Shown piece after piece: positions 812 to 32,197 of a DNA stretch of 34,147 nucleotides. The stretch spans positions 1 to 34,147 of the forward strand of contig CAVYZN010000010.1 in NCBI GenBank assembly GCA_963773065.1, given 5' to 3'. The notes under the pieces are model-generated. The model searched no databases. It had not been told where the DNA came from and saw only the letters and a list, made by a program, of their open reading frames with translations. The stretch's first letter is position 1. Every line of letters begins with the position of its first letter. This DNA is from an uncultured Gammaproteobacteria bacterium. Its GTDB lineage: Bacteria; Pseudomonadota; Gammaproteobacteria; UBA9214. A program made the translations under genes and the position numbers.

Positions 812-1792
812 ATGCGAATGCGTAGTGACTTGCTGGCGATTCTTGCAGACGGTCAGTTCCATTCCGGTGAAGCATTGGGTCTGACGCTCGGCGTGAGTCG
901 CATGGCGGTGTGGAAGCATATGCGGTCGCTGCGTGAGTGCGGCGTTCCACTGGAGGTGGCGCGCGGTCAGGGGTACCGCTTGCCGGCCTGTGTTGAACTG
1001 CTCGATGCGAAAGCCATACTGGACGGGCTTGATTCCGGGACCCGCGAGCAGTTGGCGGGTGTTGATGTTTTCCTGGAAATTGACTCCACCAATACCTGGT
1101 TGCGGCAGAAGGCGCTGGATGGCGCACCCACCGGCAGTGTCTGCGTTGCCGAGATGCAAAGCGCCGGGCGCGGGCGGCGCAACCGCCGCTGGGTCTCACC
1201 CTTTGCGGCCAGCCTGTACCTTTCGCTGTTGTGGCGATCGGCAACCGGTGCGGCGGATCTTGGCGGACTCAGCCTCGCGGCCGGGGTGGCCATCGTGCGC
1301 AGTCTCAGGACGTTTGGCATCGACACGGCGGGACTGAAGTGGCCGAATGACGTGCTCGTTGATGGCGCCAAGCTGGCGGGGATATTGATTGATGTAATCG
1401 GCGAATCGACGGGGCCGTGTTCCGTGATCATCGGCATCGGCATCAATGTGGCCATGCCGGAGTCGGCCGCCGCGGAGATAGACCAGGACTGGACCGACCT
1501 TAGTTCCCTGACGGGCCAGAAGCGGATTTCCCGCAACCGGCTCGCCGCGTCCGTCCTGGGCTGCATGATTGCGGCGCTCGAGGCATTCGAGCGGGCGGGT
1601 TTGCATCCCTTCCTGGATGAATGGCGCCGGTACGATATCATTCACGGCCGCCAGGTCAATCTGCGGTTGCCCAACGAGGTCATCAAGGGCCGGGCCTGCG
1701 GCATTGATTCCGGGGGGGCATTGCTGGTTGACACGGCGGCGGGACGCCGGCGTTTTGCATCCGGCGAAGTCAGTCTGAGAGTCGCCCCATGA
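812..1792 (+). CDS. birA: Bifunctional biotin--[acetyl-CoA-carboxylase] ligase / biotin operon repressor
   Basis: N-terminal HTH (LADGQFHSGEALG..VSRMAVWKH), DSTN, GRGRR, KWPND and KLAGIL motifs, C-terminal SGEVSLR. Confidence 0.96.
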   Translation: MRMRSDLLAILADGQFHSGEALGLTLGVSRMAVWKHMRSLRECGVPLEVARGQGYRLPACVELLDAKAILDGLDSGTREQLAGVDVFLEIDSTNTWLRQKALDGAPTGSVCVAEMQSAGRGRRNRRWVSPFAASLYLSLLWRSATGAADLGGLSLAAGVAIVRSLRTFGIDTAGLKWPNDVLVDGAKLAGILIDVIGESTGPCSVIIGIGINVAMPESAAAEIDQDWTDLSSLTGQKRISRNRLAASVLGCMIAALEAFERAGLHPFLDEWRRYDIIHGRQVNLRLPNEVIKGRACGIDSGGALLVDTAAGRRRFASGEVSLRVAP

Positions 1793-2546
1793 TGCTGTTT
1801 GATGTGGGCAACTCGTCCGTCAAATGGGCGATTGAGCGGCATGGCGCGCTGGAAGGCGGCGGCCGGTTTTTTCACGATGATGAAGGTTTCTCCCGCTCGG
1901 CCAGCCGAGCCTGGAATGGTCTGCCCGCGCCGCGGGTCCTCGCGGTTGCCAACGTCGCCGGCGCCGGCATGGAACGCGAGATTACCGAGTGGGCTGCAAA
2001 TAGCTGGAACACGACACCGTGTTATGTCCGTGTCGCGAAACAGGCGGCGGGCGTGACAAACGCCTATTCGGAACCCGGCGCCCTGGGCGTCGACCGCTGG
2101 GCCGCGATCGTAGCGGCACACCACGCCACCGGGCGCCGGTGTGTGTCATCGACTGCGGCACGGCCATTACCATCGATGTCGTGGATGCCGCCGGCATCCA
2201 TCAGGGCGGTCTGATAGCACCGGGCCTGGACATGATGCGGCGTTCACTTGCGCAGGACACTGCGGCCATCGGGGCGCTGTCGGGTAAGGCGGACGAGACG
2301 CAATCCCTCCTGGGCAGGAGCACGATTGACGGCGTCAACTGCGGGGTGATGCGCATGGCCAGTGCGCTGATTGACTGGGTAGCGGGTGAAGTTGCCGCCG
2401 GATACGGCGGGAAACTCGAGGCCGTGATTACCGGCGGCGACGCGGAACGGCTACTGCCATTACTGCGCCGGGCGTTGCATCACGACCCCGACCTTGTTTT
2501 GAAGGGAGTCGCTATACTCGCCAGGGAGATGCTATGCGGCATGTGA
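1789..2546 (+). CDS. coaX: Type III pantothenate kinase (frameshift near 2140, probably a sequencing indel)
   Basis: DVGNSSVKW and LGVDRW in ORF 1789..2214; VIDCGTAITID, GGLIAPG, TGGDA and LVLKG in ORF 2019..2546. Canonical position after birA. Confidence 0.9.
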
Positions 2547-10146: not shown

Positions 10147-11273
10147 ATGTCGAAACAATTGAATACCAGCGATTGCAAGCGCTGGGTCATCAAGATCGGC
10201 AGCGCTTTGCTGACGGAAAATGGTCGTGGCCTGGCGGTGGGCGCGCTCGACGGCTGGGTTGAACAGATCGTCGCCCTGCGCAAGGAGGGCCGTGAAATGC
10301 TGCTGGTCTCATCCGGTGCGGTGGCCGAGGGCATGACGCGGCTGGGGTGGACCCGTCGCCCGCACGCCCTGCACGAATTGCAGGCGGTGGCGGCCGTCGG
10401 CCAGATGGGGCTGATCCAGGCCTATGAATCGCGTTTCCAGCGATACGGCTTGCATACCGCGCAGGTGCTGCTTACCCACGATGACCTCGCCGACCGCCAG
10501 CGTTACCTGAATGCCCGCAGTACCTTGCGCACCCTGCTCAGGCTGGGCGTGGTGCCGGTCGTGAATGAAAACGACACCGTGGCAACCGAGGAAATTCGCT
10601 TCGGCGACAACGACACGCTGGCCGCGCTGGTGGCCAATCTGGTGGAGGCCGATCTGCTGGTTCTGCTGACGGATCAGGCCGGAATGTATGACAAAGACCC
10701 GCGCAAGGACGCAGGGGCTGCGCTGGTGACCGAGGCGCGGGCCGGCGACGCGGCGCTGGAATCCATGGCGGGCGATAGCGGCGGGATGCTGGGCGCGGCG
10801 GCATGCTGACCAAGGTGCGGGCGGCGGCGCGCGCGGCGCGTTCCGGGACGCTGACGGTGATCGCCTCGGGCAAGGAGGAAAATATCCTCCAGCGCCTGGC
10901 CTCGGGCGAGGCACTCGGCACCCGGCTGTTCCCGGCCAGCGTGCCGCTCGCCGCACGCAAGCAATGGCTCGCCGGGCAACTGCAGGTGCGCGGGTGCCTG
11001 ACGCTTGATGACGGCGCCATCACCGTGCTGCGGGCGGCGGGCAGGAGCCTGCTGCCGGTCGGTGTTACCGGGGTGGAAGGTGATTTCGATCGCGGGGATC
11101 TGGTGGTGTGTTACGCGCCTGGGGGTGAGGAGGCGGCCCGCGGTCTGGTGAATTACAGCGCCGAGGAATCACGCCGGATCATCGGGCATCCCAGCCACCG
11201 CATCGAGGAGATCCTGGGTTATGTCGATGAACCGGAACTGATACACCGCGACAACCTGGTCCTGATGGGATAG
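10147..11273 (+). CDS. proB: Glutamate 5-kinase with PUA domain (frameshift near 10795)
   Basis: VIKIGS, VSSGAVA and NENDTV..FGDNDTL in ORF 10147..10809; MLTKV..SLLPVGV..IHRDNLV in ORF 10803..11273. Confidence 0.93.
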
Positions 11274-13615: not shown

Positions 13616-13672
13616 GACACCGCCCGGGTGCTATACACTAGGCTTTTTGTTCGGGCGGTCCGGCAAATTACC

Positions 13673-14600
13673 ATGGAATTGGTTCGCGGCATTAATAACT
13701 TGCGTCCCCGTCACCGGGGGTGCGCCGCTACCATCGGCAATTTCGATGGCGTGCACCTCGGGCACCAGGCCGTGCTCGGGCAATTGTCGGAACACGCCGA
13801 GATGCTGCGCCTGCCGGTAACGGTCATCATGTTCGAGCCGCAACCGCGGGAATACTTCACCCCGGAGCGGGTGCCTCCCCGATTCACGCGGTTGAGGGAA
13901 AAGGTGGAGGCGCTGCGCCGCTTTGGCGTGGACCGGGTGCTTTGTCTGCGTTTCGGCGACTTCCTGGCCGGCCTGTTGCCGGAGGAATTTATCCGTATCA
14001 TCCTGCTGGAAGGGCTGGAGGTGAAATATCTCGTGGTCGGGGATGATTTCCGGTTTGGCAGGGGCCGGGCCGGGAATTTCGCGACTGCTCGATCGCGCCG
14101 GGGCCGCCCATGGATTTTCCGTCGTGAAAATGCATACCTTCAATATCGACGGGAAGCGCGTCAGCAGTACGCGCGTTCGCGATGCACTGGAGGCGGGTGA
14201 CCTGGCGGGGGCGGAATCCCTGCTGGGCCGGCCCTACCGCATGAGCGGCCGGGTGGCGCATGGCGACAAACGCGGCCGGACAATCGGTTTCCCGACGGCC
14301 AATATTTTTCTGCACCGCAGCGCAACACCGGTGCAGGGCGTGTTCGCGGTGGAATTGTTCGGGGTGGAGGGCGAACCCGTGCGGGGGGTCGCCAATGTCG
14401 GCAACCGTCCGACCGTGGACGGCACGCGCAGCCTGCTGGAAGTTCACCTGTTCGATTTCCACCGGGACATCTACGGCCGCCACGTACAGGTCGAGTTCCT
14501 GCACAAGATCAGGGCGGAACGGCGTTTCGAGAGTTTCGATGCCCTGCGGCGGCAGATCGAGGATGATGCGACCCAGGCGCGCGCGTGGTTTGGAAAATGA
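13673..14600 (+). CDS. ribF: Bifunctional riboflavin kinase/FAD synthetase (frameshift near 14085)
   Basis: TIGNFDGVHLGHQ and VVGDDFRFG; then VSSTRVR, GRTIGFPTAN, NVGNRPT and LEVHLFDF in the second frame. Confidence 0.93.
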
Positions 14601-14601
14601 A

Positions 14602-15138
14602 TCACCGCAAAGGCGCGAAGGACGCAAAGGGATTCTTTTACAAAACAATTTAAATTTTGCGTTCTTTGCGGTGCCATAATTCTTTATTGGATGACACAAG
14701 CTGACGAGTTGATGCCAGGGAGGGTGTCGATGAGCAGGGAAGATATACTTTCACACGAGATTATCAGCGCGGCAATCGAGGTGCACCGGAATACAGGCCC
14801 CGGTTTGCTTGAATCGGCGTATGAACAGTGCCTCTGCGTGGAACTGGGGAAAAGGAATATTGGTTTTGAGCGGCAGGTTCAAATACCGGTAAACTATAAA
14901 GGTTGTATGATCGATTGCGGTTACCGCATGGATCTGCTTGTCGATGACCTCGTCGTTCTTGAACTGAAGGCAGTCAGCACGCTGGAAAGAATTCATGAAG
15001 CACAATTGCTGATATACCTGAAACTCTCCGGAAAGCGACTTGGGATTTTACTGAATTTCAATGTTGTGCTTTTGAGAAATGGAATCAAACGAGTAGTTAA
15101 CGGCTTATGACTTCGCGCTCTTTGCGTCTTTGCGGTGA
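14602..15138. mobile_element. Putative GxxExxY cassette bounded by inverted repeats, inserted between ribF and ileS
   Basis: Left arm TCACCGCAAAGGCGCGAAGGACGCAAAG (14602-14629), partial inverted arm 14655-14673, right arm CTTCGCGCTCTTTGCGTCTTTGCGGTGA (15111-15138). Visibly more AT-rich than the flanks. Confidence 0.6.
14730..15110 (+). CDS. GxxExxY protein (PD-(D/E)XK nuclease-like)
   Basis: AAIEVHRNTGPGLLESAYEQCL, YRMDLLVDDLVVLELKAV, HEAQLLIYLK, GILLNF. GGAGG RBS before ATG 14730. Confidence 0.93.
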   Translation: MSREDILSHEIISAAIEVHRNTGPGLLESAYEQCLCVELGKRNIGFERQVQIPVNYKGCMIDCGYRMDLLVDDLVVLELKAVSTLERIHEAQLLIYLKLSGKRLGILLNFNVVLLRNGIKRVVNGL

Positions 15139-15146
15139 GAATAAAC

Positions 15147-17996
15147 GTGGCTGATTACAAAAATACCCTCAATCTTCCCAACACGGCTTTCCCCATGAAG
15201 GGCAATCTGCCCCAGCGCGAACCGGAGATACTGCAGCGCTGGGAAGCCATGGACCTCTACGGCACGCTGCGCGAGGCCTGCCGGGGACGCCCGCGATTCG
15301 TGCTGCATGACGGGCCGCCCTACGCCAACGGCGACATCCACATCGGCCATGCCGTCAACAAGGTCCTGAAGGACATCATCGTCAAGAGCAAGACCCTGAG
15401 CGGGTTCGATGCGCCCTATATTCCCGGTTGGGACTGCCACGGCCTGCCGATCGAACTCAATGTCGAGAAGCAGGTCGGCAAGCCCGGCGTCAAGGTGGAT
15501 GCGGCGGCCTTCAGGAACGCCTGCCGTGAATATGCCAGCCAGCAGGTGAACGGCCAGCGGCGGGATTTCATGCGCCTGGGGGTGGTGGGCGACTGGCGGA
15601 ATCCCTATCTCACCATGCAGTACCGCATCGAGGCCGACATCATCCGCGCGCTGGGCAGGATCGCCGAAAACGGCCACCTGTACCAAGGGCTACAAGCCGG
15701 TGCACTGGTGCACGGATTGCGGCTCCGCCCTGGCGGAGGCCGAAGTGGAATATGAGGACAAGGATTCGCTCGCCATCGATGTCCGCTTCCCGGTGCTGAA
15801 TGAGCAGGCGTTGCTCGCGCGCTGCCACCATACCGAGGGGCGTTGCGGAGAGGGTCCGCTGCCGGTCGTGATCTGGACCACCACACCCTGGACGCTGCCG
15901 GCCAACCACGCGGTCGCGCTCAATCCGGCGCTGGACTATGTCGTGGTGCAGTGCGATACCGGCCACGGGCAGGAGCGGCTGCTGCTGGCCGATGCGCTGC
16001 TAAAGGACGCCATGGGCCGTTTCAATGCGGAGAAATACCGAGGTGCTGGCCTATTGCAAGGGGAGCGATCTGGAAGGGCTGAAACTCGCGCATCCGTTCT
16101 ACCAGCGCGAGGTGCCGGTCATCCTCGGCGAGCACGTCACCACGGAGGCGGGCACCGGCGCCGTGCATACCGCGCCCGGGCATGGCCAGGAAGACTATAT
16201 CGTCGGACGCCGTTACAGCCTGCCGGTCGACAATCCGGTCGGCGGCGATGGCCGGTTTCTTCCGGACACCGAACTGTTTGCCGGACAGCATGTCTTCGAG
16301 GCCAACAATTCCGTCATCGAGGTTCTGAAGAGCCGCGGCGGCGCTGCTGCACGAAGAGAAGCTCCGGCACAGTTATCCGCACTGCTGGCGGCACAAGACG
16401 CCGATCATCTTCCGCGCCACGCCGCAATGGTTCATCAGCATGGAGCAGAATCACCTGCGCACGGCGGCATTGAGCGAGATCCGGCAGGTCGAATGGATAC
16501 CGGACTGGGGGCAGGCGCGCATCGCCGGCATGGTGGAGAACCGGCCGGACTGGTGCATCTCGCGCCAGCGGACCTGGGGTGTGCCGATCGCGCTGTTCGT
16601 GCACAGGGAAAGCGGCGAACTGCACCCGGACAGCGCCAGCCTCATCGAGGCCATCGCGCGGCGCGTCGAAGAGCGGGGCATCGACGCCTGGTATGAACTG
16701 GATCCGGCCGAGCTGCTCGGCGGCGATGCCGCCGATTATGAAAAGGTGACCGACACGCTGGACGTGTGGTTCGACTCCGGCGTGACCCACTTTGCCGTGC
16801 TGCGGCAGCGCGAGGATCTGGCGTTTCCGGCCGACCTCTACCTGGAGGGCTCCGACCAGCATCGCGGCTGGTTCCAGTCTTCGCTGCTCACCTCGGTCGC
16901 CATGTGCGGCATGGCGCCCTACAAGGCGGTGCTGACCCACGGCTTTACCGTCGATGCCAACGGCCAGAAGATGTCCAAATCCCGGGGCAATGTGGTGGCC
17001 CCGCAGAAGGTGGTGAATGCGCTCGGCGCCGATATCCTGCGCCTGTGGGTGGCCGCGACCGACTACCGCGGCGAGATGAGCGGTCTCGGACGAGATCCTG
17101 AAACGCATGGGCGACTCCTATCGCCGCCTGCGCAACACCGCCCGCTTTCTGCTCGCCAATCTGAACGGTTTCGATCCCGCCGCGGACCTGCTGGATCCGC
17201 GGCAAATGCTGGGTCTCGACCGCTGGGCCGTCGAACGTACCCGCTTGCTGCAGGAAGCGGGTGCGACGGCCTATGGCGATTACGAATTCCACCGCATCTA
17301 TCAGCTGGTGCACAACTTCTGCGCGGTGGATATGGGCGGCTTCTATCTGGATATCATCAAGGACCGGCAGTACACCACGCGTGCCGACGGCATCCCGCGG
17401 CGCTCCGCGCAGACGGCGATGTACCACGTGGTCGAGGCGCTGGTGCGCTGGTTCGCGCCGATCATGAGTTTCACCGCCGAGGAGATCTGGCGGCACCTGC
17501 CCGGGACCGCGTGCCGCATCGGTTTTTCTCTCGACCTGGCATGAGCTGCCGCCGGTCTGCATACGGAATCCGAGGTCCGGCGGCACATGGATGCCGATTA
17601 CTGGGACCGGGTCATCGGGTGCGTGAGGCCGTCAGCAAGGAACTGGAGAAGCTGCGGGTGGCCGGCGGGATAGGCTCCTCGCTCGATGCCGAGGTGGACC
17701 TCTATGCCGATGCGGAAACCGCCGGACTGTTGCGCGCCCTGGAGGATGAGCTGCGCTTCGTGCTGATCACCTCCTATGCCCGCGTTCATGACGCCGCCGC
17801 CCGTCCGGCTGAGGCGGTCGTGGCCGGCGATCCCGGGCGGCAACTCTGGCTGCGGGTTGCGCCCTCGGAGCATGCCAAGTGCGTGCGCTGCTGGCACCAT
17901 CGCGAGGACGTGGGTGCGAACCCGGAACATCCCGAACTCTGCGGGCGTTGCATCGAGAATATCGCGGGCGACGGTGAATTGCGCCGTTACGCCTGA
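15147..17996 (+). CDS. ileS: Isoleucine--tRNA ligase (about five frameshifts, probably sequencing indels)
   Basis: [58 protein letters not shown] and C-terminal CxRCW..CGRC, spread over successive frames. Confidence 0.94.
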
Positions 17997-18499: not shown

Positions 18500-18544
18500 G
18501 CGGCGCCTTTATCGAGTGTTAACATGAATGGCTGACATTTCTTC

Positions 18545-18634
18545 GTCGTCATTCCGGCCAAACGAGCATAGCGAGCGCGAGCCGGAATCCAGGAACCTTA
18601 AGGACATCCTGGATTCCCGCTTTCGCGGGAATGA
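18545..18634. repeat. REP/dRS3-like palindromic element 1, interrupted by intron copy 1 (completed by CGAC at 20560-20563)
   Basis: GTCGTCATTCCGGC..GCCGGAATCCAGG..CCTGGATTCCCGCTTTCGCGGGAATGA|CGAC. Removing the intron restores the GTCGTCATTCC/GGAATGACGAC terminal inverted repeat. Confidence 0.85.
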
Positions 18635-20559
18635 GTGCGCCCGTGAAGGCGCGGTATCCGCATGGTGAAAGTCCATGCCGGGGCAAGCCAAGACCCCGAA
18701 GCCGAAGGTAACTGCGTCGCCGCGAGGCGGGGTGGAGAGCAACTGGAGGCGAACTGGCGGTCCGCAGGGTAACGAACTCGATTCGGCGGGATGCAGCGAC
18801 GAGCCTGCTCATTCATGGCGAAGTCCGAAACACGCCCGGCACGCTGGTAATGGCGTGCAAAGCGCTGCCGGGGCGCATCACGTGGTTGGAGGCGGAACGT
18901 TGGGAAGGTATCGCGAGATAAGCGGGGAGACCTGCCGTCGAGGTGACGTCGGCAGGGGTCAGAACCTTCGTAGTACCGAAGGACGGAGCAAGGAAGCCAT
19001 GGCACAAACCGAGGGAAACCGGAGTTCGAGAGCAGGGGTGCATACCCCGCCTAACGCTTGCCCTGCCCGTCTGAGAGGTGCGGAAAGCAAAGCCGCTCCG
19101 AGGGAAGGGAGGTAGGAAGGTGGATGTGTGAAATCTGGAAAGAGGCAAAGCGTGAGCGCAGCATCGGTAGTGCCCGCGAGGGCTAAACAAGAAGCGGAAA
19201 CCCGGGTCCGAGACTGGAGCTGGGTGGACACCACGATCTGGACGGAACGCATGTTGGCGGCGCTGGATAACGGCGTCAAAGGAAGCAAATGGTTCAGCCT
19301 GATCGACAAAGTCGCGCGGGCGGACACGCTGCGCCAAGCCTGGGAGAAAGTTGCCCGGAACAAAGGTGTGGCGGGAGTGGACGGGCAAAGCGTGGAGAAG
19401 TTTGCCGCGCAGGCGGAGGCTTATCTGAACGAACTGGAAGAAACGTTGAAGCGGGGCAGTTACCGGCCGCAGCCGGTCAAGCGCGTGGAGATTCCCAAAG
19501 GACCGGGGCAAACCCGGCCGCTGGGCATCCCGGCGGTGAAAGACCGCATCGTGCAGACCGCGCTCAAGCGGGTATGTGAGCCCATCTTCGAGCGGGAATT
19601 CCACGACAACAGCTACGGCTTCCGCCCCGGACGCGGATGCAAGGACGCTCTGAGAGAAGTCGACCGGCTCATCAAGGACGGCTACCCCCACGTAGTGGAT
19701 GCCGACCTCAAGAGCTACTTCGACAGTATCCCGCATGAACGGCTGCTGGCCCGGGTAGAAGAACGGATTAGTGATGGGCGAGTCCTTGACCTGATCCGAG
19801 GCTACCTGAGCCAAGACATCCTGCATGGCCTGGTGCGCTGGACACCGACGGGAGGCACGCCGCAAGGCGCGGTCATCAGCCCGTTACTGGCGAACCTCTA
19901 CCTGCACCCGCTGGACGGCCTGATGCAAGGCAAGGGGTACCGGATGGTTCGGTATGCCGACGACTTCGTCATACTTTGCCGGACGGCGGAAGAAGCGAAG
20001 GCCGCACTGGAAGAAGTGCATGCCTGGGTGGAAGCTAACGGTCTTGCCCTGCACCCCAACAAGACCCAAGTGGGCGACTGTCGGGAAACGGGGCAAGGCT
20101 TCGACTTCCTGGGCTACCGCTTCGAAGCGGGGCGGCGCTGGGTGCGCAAGAAAAGCCTGAGAGCCATACGGGACAAGCTGCGGAGCAGGACCGGACGCAC
20201 GCGCGGGGAGAGCCTGAGGAGCATGATCGCGGAGATCAACCCGATCCTGAAAGGCTGGTTTGGCTACTTCAAGCATGCCCACCCGCTAGAGTTCAAGCGA
20301 CTGGACGGCTTCATCCGTCGTCGCCTGCGGGCGCTGTTGCGCAAACGGGCGAAGCGGCCGGGAATGGGGCACTGCCATGCTGATCATGCGCGTTGGCCGA
20401 AGGCTTTCTTCGCTGAGCAAGGGCTCTTCACCTTGACCGGAGCCCATGCGCAGGCGAGCCAATCACGATGTTGAAACCACCGACTGGAGAGCCGTGTGCG
20501 GGAGAACCGCACGCACGGTTCGGAGGGAGGGGAGGGCGCGAGCCCTTCTCTACCCCTAT
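18635..20559 (+). mobile_element. Group II intron, copy 1 (1925 bp)
   Basis: 5' GTGCG; domain V GAGCCGTGTGCGGGAGAACCGCACGCACGGTTC (20489-20521); domain VI with bulged A; 3' ..CCCCTAT. Boundaries confirmed by where identity with copy 2 ends. Confidence 0.95.
19128..20474 (+). CDS. ltrA: Group II intron reverse transcriptase/maturase (no endonuclease domain)
   Basis: GVDG, RPLGIPAVKDRIVQ, SYGFRPGR, DADLKSYFDSIPH, GTPQGAVISPLLANLYL, RYADDF, FDFLGY and GWFGYF motifs. Confidence 0.96.
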   Translation: MKSGKRQSVSAASVVPARAKQEAETRVRDWSWVDTTIWTERMLAALDNGVKGSKWFSLIDKVARADTLRQAWEKVARNKGVAGVDGQSVEKFAAQAEAYLNELEETLKRGSYRPQPVKRVEIPKGPGQTRPLGIPAVKDRIVQTALKRVCEPIFEREFHDNSYGFRPGRGCKDALREVDRLIKDGYPHVVDADLKSYFDSIPHERLLARVEERISDGRVLDLIRGYLSQDILHGLVRWTPTGGTPQGAVISPLLANLYLHPLDGLMQGKGYRMVRYADDFVILCRTAEEAKAALEEVHAWVEANGLALHPNKTQVGDCRETGQGFDFLGYRFEAGRRWVRKKSLRAIRDKLRSRTGRTRGESLRSMIAEINPILKGWFGYFKHAHPLEFKRLDGFIRRRLRALLRKRAKRPGMGHCHADHARWPKAFFAEQGLFTLTGAHAQASQSRC

Positions 20560-21133: not shown

Positions 21134-21192
21134 AACTTTGTTTAATGAAAAACAGATCAATGCGAAAGATGTTTTAGAGAATCTCTGAGCAC

Positions 21193-21268
21193 GTCATCCC
21201 CGCGAAAGCGGGGATCCAGTAACCCACTCGATCCTGTACAGACTGGATTCCCGCTTTCGCGGGAATGA
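21193..21268. repeat. REP/dRS3-like palindromic element 2, interrupted by intron copy 2
   Basis: GTCATCCCCGCGAAAGCGGGGATCCAGT..ACTGGATTCCCGCTTTCGCGGGAATGA|C(23194). Confidence 0.85.
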
Positions 21269-23193
21269 GTGCGCCCGTGAAGGCGCGGTATCCGCATGGT
21301 GAAAGTCCATGCCGGGGCAAGCCAAGACCCCGAAGCCGAAGGTAACTGCGTCGCCGCGAGGCGGGGTGGAGAGCAACTGGAGGCGAACTGGCGGTCCGCA
21401 GGGTAACGAACTCGATTCGGCGGGATGCAGCGACGAGCCTGCTCATTCATGGCGAAGTCCGAAACACGCCCGGCACGCTGGTAATGGCGTGCAAAGCGCT
21501 GCCGGGGCGCATCACGTGGTTGGAGGCGGAACGTTGGGAAGGTATCGCGAGATAAGCGGGGAGACCTGCCGTCGAGGTGACGTCGGCAGGGGTCAGAACC
21601 TTCGTAGTACCGAAGGACGGAGCAAGGAAGCCATGGCACAAACCGAGGGAAACCGGAGTTCGAGAGCAGGGGTGCATACCCCGCCTAACGCTTGCCCTGC
21701 CCGTCTGAGAGGTGCGGAAAGCAAAGCCGCTCCGAGGGAAGGGAGGTAGGAAGGTGGATGTGTGAAATCTGGAAAGAGGCAAAGCGTGAGCGCAGCATCG
21801 GTAGTGCCCGCGAGGGCTAAACAAGAAGCGGAAACCCGGGTCCGAGACTGGAGCTGGGTGGACACCACGATCTGGACGGAACGCATGTTGGCGGCGCTGG
21901 ATAACGGCGTCAAAGGAAGCAAATGGTTCAGCCTGATCGACAAAGTCGCGCGGGCGGACACGCTGCGCCAAGCCTGGGAGAAAGTTGCCCGGAACAAAGG
22001 TGTGGCGGGAGTGGACGGGCAAAGCGTGGAGAAGTTTGCCGCGCAGGCGGAGGCTTATCTGAACGAACTGGAAGAAACGTTGAAGCGGGGCAGTTACCGG
22101 CCGCAGCCGGTCAAGCGCGTGGAGATTCCCAAAGGACCGGGGCAAACCCGGCCGCTGGGCATCCCGGCGGTGAAAGACCGCATCGTGCAGACCGCGCTCA
22201 AGCGGGTATGTGAGCCCATCTTCGAGCGGGAATTCCACGACAACAGCTACGGCTTCCGCCCCGGACGCGGATGCAAGGACGCTCTGAGAGAAGTCGACCG
22301 GCTCATCAAGGACGGCTACCCCCACGTAGTGGATGCCGACCTCAAGAGCTACTTCGACAGTATCCCGCATGAACGGCTGCTGGCCCGGGTAGAAGAACGG
22401 ATTAGTGATGGGCGAGTCCTTGACCTGATCCGAGGCTACCTGAGCCAAGACATCCTGCATGGCCTGGTGCGCTGGACACCGACGGGAGGCACGCCGCAAG
22501 GCGCGGTCATCAGCCCGTTACTGGCGAACCTCTACCTGCACCCGCTGGACGGCCTGATGCAAGGCAAGGGGTACCGGATGGTTCGGTATGCCGACGACTT
22601 CGTCATACTTTGCCGGACGGCGGAAGAAGCGAAGGCCGCACTGGAAGAAGTGCATGCCTGGGTGGAAGCTAACGGTCTTGCCCTGCACCCCAACAAGACC
22701 CAAGTGGGCGACTGTCGGGAAACGGGGCAAGGCTTCGACTTCCTGGGCTACCGCTTCGAAGCGGGGCGGCGCTGGGTGCGCAAGAAAAGCCTGAGAGCCA
22801 TACGGGACAAGCTGCGGAGCAGGACCGGACGCACGCGCGGGGAGAGCCTGAGGAGCATGATCGCGGAGATCAACCCGATCCTGAAAGGCTGGTTTGGCTA
22901 CTTCAAGCATGCCCACCCGCTAGAGTTCAAGCGACTGGACGGCTTCATCCGTCGTCGCCTGCGGGCGCTGTTGCGCAAACGGGCGAAGCGGCCGGGAATG
23001 GGGCACTGCCATGCTGATCATGCGCGTTGGCCGAAGGCTTTCTTCGCTGAGCAAGGGCTCTTCACCTTGACCGGAGCCCATGCGCAGGCGAGCCAATCAC
23101 GATGTTGAAACCACCGACTGGAGAGCCGTGTGCGGGAGAACCGCACGCACGGTTCGGAGGGAGGGGAGGGCGCGAGCCCTTCTCTACCCCTAT
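21269..23193 (+). mobile_element. Group II intron, copy 2 (1925 bp, offset 2634 from copy 1)
   Basis: Same GTGCG..CCCCTAT ends. All ORFs wholly internal to the intron have translations identical to copy 1. Confidence 0.95.
21762..23108 (+). CDS. ltrA: Group II intron reverse transcriptase/maturase, copy 2
   Basis: 448-aa translation identical to 19128..20474; YADD motif. Confidence 0.96.
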   Translation: MKSGKRQSVSAASVVPARAKQEAETRVRDWSWVDTTIWTERMLAALDNGVKGSKWFSLIDKVARADTLRQAWEKVARNKGVAGVDGQSVEKFAAQAEAYLNELEETLKRGSYRPQPVKRVEIPKGPGQTRPLGIPAVKDRIVQTALKRVCEPIFEREFHDNSYGFRPGRGCKDALREVDRLIKDGYPHVVDADLKSYFDSIPHERLLARVEERISDGRVLDLIRGYLSQDILHGLVRWTPTGGTPQGAVISPLLANLYLHPLDGLMQGKGYRMVRYADDFVILCRTAEEAKAALEEVHAWVEANGLALHPNKTQVGDCRETGQGFDFLGYRFEAGRRWVRKKSLRAIRDKLRSRTGRTRGESLRSMIAEINPILKGWFGYFKHAHPLEFKRLDGFIRRRLRALLRKRAKRPGMGHCHADHARWPKAFFAEQGLFTLTGAHAQASQSRC

Positions 23194-23266
23194 CAGACTT
23201 AATCAAAGTTCACTTAACACCGCTAATCTGAGAGTTAAATGTAATTATGAAAACGGGGAACAAGAA

Positions 23267-23398
23267 ATGGAATATAAAATAATGCACTTTGTACTACTGG
23301 TTCTCATCCTGTTCCTGTTCTCAAAATTATCCATTGATGCAATAATCTTTGGGGCGCTGGCTATTTATTTGTATCAGACCAAGGTAGAAAAGCCATGA
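23267..23398 (+). CDS. Small hydrophobic protein (43 aa)
   Basis: MEYKIMHFVLLVLILFLFSKLSIDAIIFGALAIYLYQTKVEKP; GGGGAA upstream; AT-rich. Confidence 0.45.
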   Translation: MEYKIMHFVLLVLILFLFSKLSIDAIIFGALAIYLYQTKVEKP

Positions 23399-23490
23399 CT
23401 GGTATGATTGAGTCCTTAGAAGCATTGTATCTGATTTACCTGGTACCACAGATAATCCAGAAGCTAAAGGAAATGAATAAAGATAACTGA
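23395..23490 (+). CDS. Small peptide (31 aa), ATGA-coupled to the previous ORF
   Basis: MTGMIESLEALYLIYLVPQIIQKLKEMNKDN*. Confidence 0.35.
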   Translation: MTGMIESLEALYLIYLVPQIIQKLKEMNKDN

Positions 23491-23565
23491 AATAAACCCA
23501 GACAGAGTCAAGCAGAAGAAGGCGGTATGTGTAATGCTTGCATGCTTTGAAGTGCCGCGCTTTAT

Positions 23566-23948
23566 GTTTGAATGACAGCCCTGATGAAGAGGGGATTAAG
23601 ACCTATGTGATTCACGTTAAGCATCCGTTCACGTATTATTTGTTTGAACGACAGCCCTGATGAAGAAGGGATTAAGACCGGGACTACACACTCGCGTACT
23701 CCTCATCCTTGAACAATTCAGGTTTAAACGACAGCCCTGATGAAGAAGGGATTAAGACGTCTGCATTATTTGCCCAAGGTTAATGTGTTACCGTTGTTTG
23801 AACGACAGCCCTGATGAAGAAGGGATTAAGACCGCAATGCGCTTCATCTATGAAGCCTCCTCGATGTTTGAACGACAGCCCTGATGAAGAAGGGATTAAG
23901 ACTTCGCAGGTAATCGACATCCCATGGTTGCAGTGGTTTGAACGACAG
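23566..23948 (+). CRISPR. Orphan CRISPR array, type III-like 37-bp repeat; 5 full repeats, 1 truncated repeat, 5 spacers
   Basis: GTTTGAACGACAGCCCTGATGAAGAAGGGATTAAGAC at 23566, 23642, 23722, 23796 and 23866; 13-bp partial repeat at 23936. Unique spacers of 39, 43, 37, 33 and 33 nt. CCCT/AGGG hairpin and ATTAAGAC 3' end. Confidence 0.95.
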
Positions 23949-24249
23949 GTTCATCTGGCCTTCGAGGCCGTATCTGATCTCAGCAGGGAGGAGCTAGAGG
24001 GACTTGGACAGCTCATTGCAAGCCAGCAATAACAGGTTCATGTTCGCTCTATTCCGATTCTGACCATTTTCGAACAGTCACGGTGAGAGTCGCATTTGAG
24101 TCGACTCCGCCAATTAGCTAATCGTTGCGGCGGGCGACCCGATCCCCTCGGTAGGCCGGTTCGCCTATGTCGAAGCGTGGTATTGCTGGTTAATGGACCG
24201 GATGGCTGCCGGATCGTCAAGAGGATGTCTAACCGCCTGTGTCACATAC

Positions 24250-24822
24250 TCAATGCAGTCGAAGCGTTGCATAGTCCCCCAGGGCGGTCTCGATATCCTG
24301 GAGACTGGGTCTTTCGGCCAGCGCCGGCGAGTTAAAGGCACCGCCACAGACAAGGGAAAGCACGTCCAGTTGCCGGTCGGAGTGCAGGTACAGGGTGTAG
24401 ATCTTCATCAGCCTGCTCTCGCCATCACCGCCGCCGTCACCTCCCCCGTCCCCGCTCGCCAGATGAAAATCCGCACTTATCGCCACCACGACACCTCCCG
24501 AAGCGACGACATGCACGATGTCGGATGAGACTCTCTCGACAGTGAAGTGGTCGGCATAAATCGTCTGTGGCCGCTCGACCACGTTCCTGACCGTCAGCTC
24601 ACAGTGCGGCCGGTATTCGTTGATCGCCGGTTGCGCCACCCCATCCTGGAAAAACACGCGGGCCATTCCGGGCGGAACAACGACATCCCGGTAAAGTTCA
24701 ACGCTGGCGTTGCGCAGGGGGACGTAGTCGCGGGTTGCCTCGTTCCTGATCAACAGCGGTCCGCATGCAGCGAGTAACCACGCTGCTAACAGTGCGGCGG
24801 CGATGGCACGCCGCCGTCTCAA
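24250..24822 (-). CDS. Hypothetical lipoprotein
   Basis: RRRRAIAAALLAAWLLAAC lipobox; 190-aa open frame. Confidence 0.7.
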   Translation of the reverse strand: MRRRRAIAAALLAAWLLAACGPLLIRNEATRDYVPLRNASVELYRDVVVPPGMARVFFQDGVAQPAINEYRPHCELTVRNVVERPQTIYADHFTVERVSSDIVHVVASGGVVVAISADFHLASGDGGGDGGGDGESRLMKIYTLYLHSDRQLDVLSLVCGGAFNSPALAERPSLQDIETALGDYATLRLH

Positions 24823-31764: not shown

Positions 31765-31806
31765 AGCGATCCCTCGTCTGAGTTATGTTCCAAACCGCTG
31801 TACTGA

Positions 31807-31983
31807 GTGCCTGTGAAAATATCGCCAGCCTGCTGCGGACGCCGCTTTGCGGCTGTGGCGGCGTTGCGCCACGCGAAAACTTCGGTCATTTGGCTCGCCA
31901 AACTTCCTTGTTTTCGCGCAGCGCGCCTTGCCTCGCACGCCAATCGACGCCCTCGCGACGGCCGTCGATATTTTCACAGGCTC
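31807..31983. mobile_element. MITE, 177 bp
   Basis: 18-bp TIRs GTGCCTGTGAAAATATCG / CGATATTTTCACAGGCTC (1 mismatch), flanked by TGA direct repeats at 31804-31806 and 31984-31986. No transposase. Confidence 0.8.
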
Positions 31984-32197
31984 TGAGGCAGCCGGCCAGC
32001 TCGCGTATCCTCCTCGTTGTTGATGACCAGTCTTATTACCCGCAAAGAAGTGGCTACGCGGCGGGTAAAGATACGATTGTTGAATTCAAAACGCCAGAAC
32101 CCTATGGCCAGGGATTGAGGATTCGTAACTGACGGCGTGAAAGACGGGGACCGGCCAAGGCCGGTCAATCAATCGGAGCAGTCATGCGGACGAGATG

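Follow-up and report, generated by a model that had tools for sequence, protein, structure and literature searches.

A CRISPR array downstream of a group II intron

We looked at a stretch of 34,147 nt (the window, meaning the whole piece of DNA that was analysed) in which a short CRISPR array follows the second of two group II intron copies. The features of the locus, all on the + strand, are the following:

18635..20559, + strand: group II intron copy 1, in the lspA-fkpB spacer, within a REP-like element (5' flank 18522-18634)
21184..21268, + strand: 5' part of a REP-like palindromic element, the intron target, ending in the hairpin ATTCCCGCTTTCGCGGGAAT and then GA
21269..23193, + strand: group II intron copy 2 (IIC-like), with 5' GTGCG, D1-D4 ribozyme, RT/maturase ORF 21762-23108 and domains V-VI
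23194..23208, + strand: REP-like tail, CAGACTTAATCAAAG, which serves intron copy 2 as 3' exon
23209..23565, + strand: AT-rich stretch between the REP-like tail and the array, with two small ORFs within
23267-23398, + strand: small ORF1, 43 aa, hydrophobic
23395-23490, + strand: small ORF2, 31 aa
23566..23948, + strand: CRISPR array, five full 37-nt repeats, five spacers and a sixth repeat ending after 13 nt
23943..24032, + strand: 3' fragment of an ORF, 29 codons plus stop, joined to the repeat-6 stump, where an X3 contig diverges

The 37-nt repeat, GTTTGAACGACAGCCCTGATGAAGAAGGGATTAAGAC, was found by pattern search at 23566, 23642, 23722, 23796, and 23866 on the + strand, with 2, 0, 1, 0, and 0 mismatches, respectively, and the reversed pattern, taken as a control, gave 0 matches. 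The repeats are direct and of constant length, and the five spacers (39, 43, 37, 33, and 33 nt) all differ from each other. This confirms the first-pass annotation, which had described 37-nt repeats with five unique spacers of 33-43 nt about 370 bp past the reverse transcriptase (RT) element, the measured gap from the intron end (23193) to the array start being 372 nt. The full repeats occupy 23566-23902 and the stump of repeat 6 lies at 23936-23948. The end of the span given earlier, 24032, had to be corrected: it is the stop codon of the fused gene fragment and not the array end (23948). The letters CGACAG (23943-23948) are common to the stump and to the downstream ORF fragment, for which no Pfam family was found. 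Extra degenerate repeats upstream were looked for and rejected, the best match having 18/37 positions against a shuffle mean of 17.8. The repeat forms a hairpin with 4 bp in the stem and 8 nt in the loop, after which comes an 8-nt tail, AUUAAGAC; hairpin and tail are kept in four of the five repeats, and repeats 1 and 3 deviate from the consensus. The Rfam family CRISPR-DR32 matched all 5/5 repeats at full length on the + strand with 33.9-36.5 bits, below its gathering score of 48. Across the assembly (3.84 Mb, 90.9% complete, 6.3% contamination) the repeat is confined to one place, and a k-mer scan found this array as the sole CRISPR-like one, other candidates being two coding tandem repeats and one poly-G run. 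No match to the repeat string GAAGGGATTAAGAC was found in full-text literature.

An IIC-like intron and its REP-like target

Intron copy 2 combines ribozyme domains with an intron-encoded RT/maturase. Rfam detected RF02001 at 21350-21550 (39.4 bits, cut-off 32) and RF00029 at 23121-23193 (57.4 bits), and the RT contains RVT_1 and GIIM (Pfam), as does that of copy 1 (ORF 19128-20474), and matches TIGR04416 at 390 bits with a cut-off of 300; no En-type domain was found in it by Pfam. Its best solved relative is the GsI-IIC RT 6ar1 (E 2e-67), followed by 7uim, 5hhj, and 5hhl, which we take to be IIC. These IIC-type relatives outrank 6me0 (8e-46) and LtrA (8e-37). As judged from RT similarity and target type, and not from a model of the ribozyme structure, the intron is IIC-like. 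The two copies, spaced 2.6 kb apart, are identical across 21243-23194, and the sole gap of their 1957-nt BLAST alignment lies just beyond the intron end, in line with the earlier statement that the RT sits in a complete ribozyme with an identical twin. Identical copies with intact ORFs suggest recent mobility of the intron.

The REP-like element is a dispersed palindrome with 14 motif sites on 9 contigs, 11 of them empty, and with a predicted fold of -48.8 kcal/mol (z -7.5); copies at 83-95% identity occur on contigs C11, C15, C27, and C32. Empty copies read ...GCGGGAATGA and continue with CAGGCTTAATCAGAG. All three related intron copies of the genome are inserted after GCGGGAATGA, 2 nt past the hairpin, and the intron on C5 has the same REP-like tail as copy 2. 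The predicted spliced REP junction is GGGAATGA joined to CAGAC. According to PMC1702495, IIC introns sit downstream of terminators or other inverted repeats.

The repeat family is associated with type III loci

The 3' 24-mer of the repeat, CCCTGATGAAGAAGGGATTAAGAC, was detected in 111 stretches of public genome contigs. Among the arrays of this family the 5' 13 nt of the repeat differ while the 3' 24-nt half is invariant. In the family arrays examined in detail, the neighbours were Cmr2, Cmr4, and Cmr6 at one locus (G061) and Csm1, Csm3, Csm4, and Csm5 at another (G063). When the distinct arrays having at least 1 kb of upstream sequence were counted (37 arrays), 31 had a cas gene at most 2 kb upstream, with Cas2 in 23 and Cas1 in 21. 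The CRISPR-DR32-like repeat thus belongs to a type III-associated family, and the label "type III-like", given to it in the first-pass annotation, is supported since the 24-mer stands in other genomes beside cas1-cas2 and type III-A/B effector genes.

The identical 37-nt repeat was found on two metagenome contigs. One of them, L123, has cas2 and a leader directly upstream of its array, and three repeats of the window match its repeats exactly; the second has a transposase and an AAA_22 ATPase upstream. In IMG/VR, one viral contig bears a solitary repeat of the family. Finally, the 25.7-kb plasmid NZ_OX458334.1 of Methylocaldum szegediense carries a family array, and none of its 34 listed features is a cas gene; since PLSDB gene tables are incomplete, such a gene is absent only from the listed features. 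This plasmid also bears recombinases and a siphovirus Gp157-family gene.

Cas genes, spacer targets, and flanking DNA

As the first-pass annotation had stated for the 34-kb window, no Cas family was found there, either among 37 ORFs (Pfam) or among 16 ORFs (NCBIfam). It had also proposed to search the genome for cas6, cas10, and cas1 and for other copies of the repeat; none was found. Profile searches of the genome gave 0 matches for Cas1 (PF01867), Cas2 (PF09827), RAMPs (PF03787), Cas6 (PF10040), and Cmr2 (TIGR02577), and 25 Cas proteins from related loci had 0 tblastn matches in its 3.84 Mb. In this assembly, 90.9% complete, cas10, RAMP, and cas6 genes as well as a cas1-cas2 module with leader are all absent. 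Neither Cas1 nor RAMPs were detected in any of 24 same-family genomes. The 37-mer at up to 3 mismatches was found in none of 60 relatives, and the 24-mer at up to 1 mismatch in none of 36 same-family genomes. As a by-product, the array is the sole CRISPR trace found in a bacterial family otherwise without Cas1 or RAMPs in the 24 genomes searched.

The spacers, whose comparison with phage, plasmid, and self sequence had likewise been proposed, yielded no protospacer in these searches. The best match of the array among 50,697 phage records had E = 1, and the sole match among 72,556 plasmid records was a related array. Exact matching, which diverged protospacers escape, gave 0 matches in IMG/VR for each of the five 26-nt spacer starts and 0 matches in metagenome contigs for spacer 5. 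In the genome itself and in the related loci, the spacers had nothing better than an 18-nt match containing 1 mismatch (E 0.24).

The DNA upstream of the array is of a different composition, with a GC content of 0.378 for 23214-23565 versus 0.589 for the contig; taken with the array, the segment has 0.38-0.46 in a genome of 0.59. The two small ORFs within it are probably not genes: neither matched a Pfam family, and ORF1 had no homologue besides itself among 5.8 billion proteins. A profile built from 17 family leaders had no match in the window, even with E allowed up to 10. A resemblance to the leader seen by eye (AAAGATAACT, CTTGCA...TTTGAA) was dropped since the profile search gave it no support. 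There was no similarity between the flank and the leader of L123, and in a blastn-short comparison with flanks taken from 78 and 81 family loci, neither the upstream nor the downstream flank had a match under E 0.02. Cas remnants, cas2 included, were searched for by tblastx of 23199-23570 and 23903-24260 against the related loci and the genome, with nothing significant. Prediction gave 2 promoter-like sites versus 1.4 expected. In same-genus genomes, the alignment with the window begins only at 24123/24124 and continues onward from there.

The array is probably a decayed remnant

Altogether, we think it likely that the array is the decayed, orphan remnant of a type III-associated array, most likely inert, which a lineage devoid of CRISPR-Cas acquired horizontally, and that its position next to the intron is a by-product of intron targeting. 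Upstream, the cas1-cas2-leader module of the family would have been replaced by unrelated AT-rich DNA; downstream, repeat 6 would have been cut and joined to the gene fragment, leaving both array ends broken. Since there is no Cas6, a transcript of the array could not be cut into crRNAs; since there is no Cas10 complex, the array could not guide interference; and since there is no Cas1-Cas2, it could not grow. Any transcription would probably be read-through of the ileS-lspA-fkpB operon, which is possible because no terminator-like site was predicted in 23100-24400, a stretch spanning the intron-array gap. The fragment may nevertheless be recent, and processable if Cas6 were supplied, because four of its five repeats keep hairpin and tail and three match repeats of L123 exactly. 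As for the intron, a mobile IIC-like element would home to the stem-loop of the REP-like element, and one such element adjoins the array. Because the intron seems to home to this stem-loop, the adjacency of RT and array can be understood as a by-product of its targeting. Chance landing of the intron, preferred already in the first-pass annotation as the simpler explanation, is supported and can be given a mechanism: an IIC-like intron of which 3/3 copies stand after the same REP-like hairpin.

The adjacency may also reflect a recombination or assembly join at the repeated intron, because the synteny with contig C9 breaks exactly there. C9 carries lspA-fkpB-ispH without REP element, intron, or array, and has the same lspA-fkpB spacer without intron copy 1 or its REP element. 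The contig of the window, C10, is a variant that matches part of C9 at 93-96% identity, and their homology stops exactly at 21183, at the REP element and intron. From there C9 leads to ispH and C10 to DNA that has same-genus counterparts in a C1-like context; farther on, C10 contains a stretch 97% identical to C11. If the contig left the 1.9-kb intron repeat at a different locus, true contiguity would extend just from the 3' end of the intron through the REP tail and the AT-rich DNA to the array, and the link between fkpB and the array would be an assembly artefact or a recombination product. The assembly is indeed indel-prone, ileS being split on either contig and C9 differing from C10 by 33 gap positions over 3.7 kb. 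Against such a join, the contig retains both identical 1.9-kb copies at a distance of 2.6 kb, which suggests that they were spanned by long reads, and copy 1 has anchoring lspA-fkpB spacer sequence on either side. Seven sequencing runs were listed, none of them RNA, the best with 0.20 of the sampled words. In 22800-24400, most of the coverage by X1-X4 contigs falls on the end of the intron and on sequence past 23943, and none of these contigs bridges the intron-array or the array-downstream join, uncovered stretches being uninformative. An X2 contig of 186 nt aligns with 23223-23406, from which it differs by 3 letters and 1 gap, and an X3 contig of 360 nt matches 23943-24104 and runs upstream into unrelated sequence. 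We consider such a join somewhat unlikely, and the nature of the array would be unchanged either way.

Instead of the stump of a chromosomal locus, the AT-rich DNA with the array could be the footprint of a mobile cas-less array of plasmid or phage origin. Cas-less arrays can persist on mobile DNA, since the Methylocaldum plasmid, with its recombinases and Gp157-family gene, carries one. The solitary repeat on a viral contig, the low GC of the segment, and the lack of CRISPR-Cas in the host-family genomes searched are consistent with this origin. However, Pfam and NCBIfam scans found no integrase, transposase, or phage gene in the array flanks, and the AT-rich stretch is absent from 399/399 other genomes of the class and had no match in the phage and plasmid collections searched together with the array. 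This makes a mobile origin improbable in our view. A bolder version of it, in which the 0.73-kb AT-rich-plus-array piece would be a travelling cas-less array of this type III repeat family, comparable to that of the Methylocaldum plasmid, that moves on mobile DNA, borrows resident type III machinery in trans and became stranded in a lineage without CRISPR-Cas, is a speculation to which we give little credit.

The first-pass annotation had also considered an orphan array served in trans. The orphan part stands, no cas gene being found in the genome. Service in trans would require type III cas genes of the same repeat family, able to process and use the five spacers, in the 9% that is unassembled, among C10-variant contigs that escaped binning, or on a plasmid. 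In its favour, the repeats have stayed largely intact and match those of a cas2-bearing array, and the use of orphan arrays in trans has been described (PMC7145637 and bioRxiv 10.1101/2020.04.14.041012). The bin is moreover incomplete and mixed: C10 being a variant, the bin may not contain the remainder of the C10 strain, where a cas locus or plasmid could lie. Against this, the array has no family leader and its 3' end is cut short, and it is because neither the genome nor any of the 24 same-family genomes holds Cas1 or RAMPs (nor did any of the 25 Cas queries match) that we judge service in trans quite improbable.

Lastly, we compared the window RT with the RTs standing beside family arrays. 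Such RTs were found in only 2/37 distinct loci (L084 and L120, which are the same place, and L049), where they follow cas1 and lie between cas1 and the array. An Rfam scan with E up to 0.01 found no intron RNA family at L084 or L049, and in NCBIfam the L120 RT matches just the RT part of the intron RT/maturase model. The window RT shares 37-38% identity with them, the same as with the intron RTs on C5 and C32 of its own genome. In PMC6013744 and PMC5513706, CRISPR-associated RTs are defined as being without intron RNA and fused or adjacent to cas1; the window RT has an intron RNA, and no Cas1 was found in the window or the genome. The first-pass annotation had raised a snapshot of intron RT and CRISPR juxtaposition with possible co-transcription. 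A functional or evolutionary link between the intron RT and the array, be it a recruitment snapshot or an RT supplying cDNA spacers or transcription, is largely refuted and scarcely credible: intron, fkpB, and array do share one strand without a predicted terminator, but the RT carries a maturase domain inside a complete ribozyme with an identical twin, the genome has no cas1, and the related introns occupy the same REP site whatever the neighbours.

Comparison with known systems

Taken alone, the locus is ordinary and matters little. Its analysis removes an attractive but wrong reading, that of an intron RT caught joining a CRISPR locus, and accounts for the pairing by an IIC-like intron that appears to target REP-like hairpins, one of them next to the array. 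Two by-products may be of use: one is a repeat family, found at type III-A and III-B loci in many Gammaproteobacteria, in which the 24-nt 3' half does not vary, and the other is a pair of ribozyme-less RTs standing between cas1 and a family array.

Like the orphan arrays surveyed by Bernheim et al. (Nucleic Acids Res 2019, PMC7145637), the window array is genuine and short, with no cas gene nearby or genome-wide; it differs from them in that both its ends are broken and its host family is without Cas1 or RAMPs in 24 genomes. With the type III-A and III-B loci of Competibacteraceae, Ectothiorhodospira, Plasticicumulans, and Leucothrix, it shares the 24-nt hairpin-plus-tail, the 37-nt repeat length, variable spacers (repeat spacing 67-76 nt), and the orientation in which cas1, cas2, leader, and array follow each other in those loci. 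These loci, however, have up to 148 repeats, a conserved leader, an adaptation module, and Cas10/RAMP effectors, whereas the window array has 5 repeats and is accompanied by none of these other components. The Methylocaldum plasmid array has the same repeat family (GTTTGAAACGAGACCTGATTAAGAAGGGATTAAGAC) and is likewise without cas among the listed features, but it counts 16 repeats, the last one degenerate, on a small circular replicon.

The intron resembles the RT-Cas1 and RT-adjacent-to-cas1 modules of type III systems (PMC5513706, PMC6013744, and PMC6821258) in that an RT of intron lineage lies less than 400 nt upstream of a type III-family array on the same strand; it departs from them by its complete ribozyme, its maturase domain, and the absence of cas1 beside it or in the genome. 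With the group IIC introns, such as B.h.I1 (PMC1702495) and the intron of the GsI-IIC RT 6ar1, it shares an RT in which Pfam found no En-type domain, insertion after a strong stem-loop and the use of several equivalent hairpin sites, although its target is a REP/MITE-like palindrome and not an intrinsic terminator or attC.

An orphan, truncated type III-family array

The locus is an orphan, truncated array of a type III family lying beside a IIC-like intron that sits in its usual hairpin target. We searched the whole source assembly (33 contigs, 3.84 Mb, 90.9% complete, 6.3% contamination), of which the window is contig C10 entire, for the 37-nt repeat GTTTGAACGACAGCCCTGATGAAGAAGGGATTAAGAC, and it was confined to the array site:

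23566, + strand: repeat 1, 2 mismatches
23642, + strand: repeat 2, 0 mismatches
23722, + strand: repeat 3, 1 mismatch
23796, + strand: repeat 4, 0 mismatches
23866, + strand: repeat 5, 0 mismatches
23936-23948, + strand: sixth repeat copy, ending after 13 nt

The five spacers measure 39, 43, 37, 33 and 33 nt and are all different. The reversed control pattern of the repeat gave 0 matches. The search confirmed the 37-nt repeats with five unique spacers of variable length described in the first-pass annotation. The mismatches of repeats 1 and 3 may stem from assembly errors. The predicted fold of the repeat is a 4-bp stem closing an 8-nt loop, with the 8-nt tail AUUAAGAC after it. Rfam CRISPR-DR32 covers 5/5 repeats full-length on the + strand, with scores (33.9-36.5 bits) that fall short of its cut-off of 48. 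By a simple k-mer scan, no further CRISPR-like arrays were detected in the assembly, the other candidates being two coding tandem repeats and one poly-G run. The annotation had left the spacers to be matched to phage, plasmid and self sequence; no protospacer was found in phage records, plasmid records, the own genome or related arrays, nor in IMG/VR (five 26-nt exact scans) or metagenome contigs (spacer 5 only), exact-match scans being of a kind that misses diverged targets.

The repeat family and its cas neighbours

The 3' 24-mer of the repeat, with one position free, was found in 111 stretches of a species-level genome collection, carried mostly by Competibacteraceae (Competibacter, Contendobacter, Plasticicumulans), Ectothiorhodospira and Leucothrix. 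Arrays of this family reach 148 repeats elsewhere; the 24-mer is invariant and the 5' 13 nt vary between arrays. Three of these loci are ordered as follows:

Ectothiorhodospira: Csx1-like, Csm6, cas1, cas1-like, cas2, array, Cmr2, Cmr4, Cmr6
Competibacteraceae, ahead of the array: Csm6, Csm1, Csm3, Csm4, Csm5, ring nuclease, Csx16, cas1, cas1-like, cas2
Contendobacter, ahead of the array: cas2, cas1, RT

Neighbours were counted for 37 distinct arrays, each having two or more exact repeats and an upstream flank of 1 kb or longer, deduplicated by the last 100 upstream bases; this set includes two near-duplicate Ectothiorhodospira strains and leaves out 26 single-repeat locus entries and arrays with shorter flanks.

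Table. Matches at most 2 kb upstream of family arrays
Cas2: 23/37
Cas1: 21/37
cas1-like gene: 16/37
RT: 2/37
Cas6, CARF or Csx genes as sole match: a few of 37
No match: 6/37

Since arrays of the same family adjoin type III genes, the label "type III-like" given to the window array is supported beyond the appearance of its repeat. The exact 37-nt repeat is present in two metagenome contigs, one with cas2 (Pfam E 6.6e-17) and a 120-nt leader immediately upstream, the other with an rve transposase and an AAA_22 ATPase upstream.

The cas1-like ORF of the 16/37 arrays, about 260-280 aa long and located between cas1 and cas2 (L117 12650-14434 and L121 5161-7009, two family loci), matches the N-terminal part of Cas1 only, by weak Pfam and NCBIfam matches. 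Solitary repeat copies were also seen outside arrays, at L116 (an 11.4-kb IMG/VR contig), at L021 and among the 26 single-repeat entries. Upstream of its repeat, the viral contig is identical to a Betaproteobacteria MAG contig, and such copies may be single repeat units on mobile elements.

Absence of cas genes

No recognisable cas gene had been reported in the window, and this was borne out: no Cas family was detected among 37 ORFs (Pfam) or 16 ORFs (NCBIfam). The absence extends to the whole assembly, where the searches for Cas1, Cas2, RAMPs, Cas6 (PF10040) and Cmr2, all of which did match control genomes, found 0 matches, and where 25 Cas proteins translated from related loci gave 0 tblastn matches at E up to 0.01. 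We then looked at relatives, which are sampled and often incomplete genomes, C10 itself being a variant contig of its bin. The 37-mer with up to 3 mismatches was found in 0/60 of them; the 24-mer with up to 1 mismatch was found in 3/60, all three from other families of the class, and in 0/36 same-family genomes. Cas1 or RAMPs were detected in 0/24 same-family genomes; the same searches found Cas1 in 6 genomes and RAMPs in 3 from other families of the class. By this Cas1/RAMP search of 24 genomes, the window array is the sole CRISPR trace seen in its taxonomic family. The absence of cas genes from the assembly, and of Cas1 and RAMPs from the 24 same-family genomes, indicates that the array is isolated and probably horizontally acquired, in a lineage otherwise showing no CRISPR-Cas.

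Both ends of the array are broken

Family arrays elsewhere have a conserved leader upstream. A profile of 17 family leaders had no match in the window (E up to 10) or the genome (E up to 1), no similarity was found to the leader of the metagenome contig carrying the identical repeat and cas2, and no cas2 remnant was detected upstream of the array. The place of the leader is taken by AT-rich DNA (23209-23565, GC 0.378 vs 0.589 for the contig), which gave 0 matches in 399 other genomes of the class. Its two small ORFs match no Pfam family, and the 43-aa one has no homologue but itself; a 186-nt contig from a freshwater-sediment run spans 23223-23406, differing by 3 letters and 1 gap. Downstream, the cut sixth repeat is joined to the final 29 codons of an ORF that stops at 24032. 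In a soil run, a 360-nt contig matches 23943-24104 with unrelated sequence upstream of the match, and alignment to same-genus genomes begins only at 24123/24124. No additional degenerate repeats flank the array on either side. The array is broken at both ends.

The intron and its REP-like target

The intron next to the array (copy 2) and its twin (copy 1) were annotated as follows:

18635-20559: group II intron copy 1, identical to copy 2
21269-23193: group II intron copy 2, starting GTGCG
21350-21550: group-II-D1D4-3 (Rfam), 39.4 bits, cut-off 32
21762-23108: RT ORF of copy 2, with RVT_1 and GIIM maturase domain; TIGR04416 at 390 bits
23121-23193: domains V-VI (Rfam), 57.4 bits
23194-23208: REP-like element tail CAGACTTAATCAAAG, 15 nt directly 3' of copy 2

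The closest solved relative of the RT is the GsI-IIC RT 6ar1 (E 2e-67), followed by 7uim, 5hhj and 5hhl, which we take to be IIC RTs, and then by 6me0 (8e-46), LtrA (8e-37) and Cas6-RT-Cas1 (5.5e-33). Contig C5 carries a third copy (about 7604-4843, minus strand), which is diverged and appears to be nested: a short 5' intron part with an RT N-terminus remnant would be followed by another ribozyme-like stretch that has an RT of its own, sharing 37.6% identity with that of the window. This copy may be a twintron.

All three copies (3/3) are inserted 2 nt past the hairpin ATTCCCGCTTTCGCGGGAAT of a palindromic, REP-like element, which when empty reads ...GCGGGAATGA/CAGGCTTAATCAGAG and is predicted to fold at -48.8 kcal/mol (z -7.5). 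Of 14 genomic sites with the exact hairpin motif, three host IIC-like introns and 11 are empty. Introns of class IIC are described as usually situated 3' of terminators or other inverted repeats (PMC1702495). The position of the intron is therefore explained by its usual hairpin target and does not need the array, and the chance landing that the first-pass annotation had named as the simpler explanation fits the shared site of the three copies.

The REP/MITE-like elements are about 100 nt long and form at least two sub-types; copies are at window 18522-18634 and 21184-21268, and others are on C8, C9, C11, C16, C22, C27 and C32. Another repeat, of about 190 nt at 31794-31996, has copies with 93-99% identity on 11 or more further contigs (C4, C5, C8, C9, C18, C20, C23, C26, C31, C32 and others) and is probably a MITE or an IS element end.

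Contig C10 and the join at the REP element

C10 7005-21183 is 93-96% identical to C9 37270-49201 over a block containing ispB, obg, proB, murJ, ribF, ileS, lspA and fkpB. Over this block C9 has no REP elements and no introns, fkpB being followed by ispH (LYTB, E 3e-98) and pilin genes, and its homology stops exactly where the REP element starts (21183). Further along, same-genus counterparts of C10 24124-25407 sit in a C1-like context, and C10 28868-33188 is 97% identical to C11 3359-7670. This second copy of the C9 housekeeping block, in agreement with the 6.3% contamination, marks C10 as a co-binned strain variant, and its order departs from that of the main genome exactly at the repeated REP/intron.

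The break at 21183 could mean that intron or REP copies recombined, or that the assembly was joined across the 1.9-kb repeat. Of the words sampled from the locus, no public run contains a fraction above 0.20, and none of the run contigs aligned there bridges the joins. The caveat touches only how fkpB is linked to the array; the identity of the array and the short-range adjacency of intron end, REP tail, AT-rich DNA and array are unaffected.

We also saw several housekeeping genes split by frameshifts (coaX, proB, ribF and ileS; window 1789-2546, 10147-11273, 13628-14600 and 15135-17996; C9 45251-48098). As ileS is frameshift-split on both C9 and C10, with 33 gap positions over 3.7 kb between the contigs, this points to an assembly prone to indel errors rather than to pseudogenes.

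Proposed role and comparison with known systems

Because genes for Cas6, Cas10-RAMP complexes and Cas1-Cas2 are missing, the array would be neither processed, used nor extended, and most likely does nothing. No terminator-like sites were predicted at 23100-24400, and promoter-like sites there are at background level; any transcription of the array would start from the ileS-lspA-fkpB operon and read through over the spliced intron.

Family arrays can travel on mobile DNA without cas genes, as indicated by the circular, 25.7-kb Methylocaldum szegediense plasmid NZ_OX458334.1, which has a 16-repeat family array (L139 11722-12825) and no cas genes among its 34 listed features. That the window fragment itself arrived as such a cas-less array is given low odds. 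The plasmid also carries recombinases, a siphovirus Gp157-family gene and toxin-antitoxin genes.

Finally, we compared the window RT with those linked to arrays. The use of intron-related RTs by type III loci, mentioned in the annotation, holds for this repeat family: in 2/37 arrays, both from Competibacteraceae (L084/L120, a single place, and L049), an RT lies directly after cas1 and ahead of the array, with the order cas2-cas1-RT-array at L120 2420-4931. The L120 RT (281 aa, NCBIfam) aligns to the intron RT/maturase model over the RT part alone, and no intron RNA family was detected at either locus (Rfam, E up to 0.01). PMC6013744 and PMC5513706 describe CRISPR-associated RTs as being without intron RNA and as either fused to cas1 or next to it; both array-linked RTs fit this definition, as cas1-adjacent and not fused. 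The window RT, in contrast, is surrounded by an intron ribozyme and has no cas1 beside it or in the assembly, and so is no example of such an RT. It is 37-38% identical to the array-linked RTs, the same as to the unrelated intron RTs of C5 and C32. The proposed intron RT-CRISPR juxtaposition is not supported as a link. Both the array and the intron belong to known kinds.
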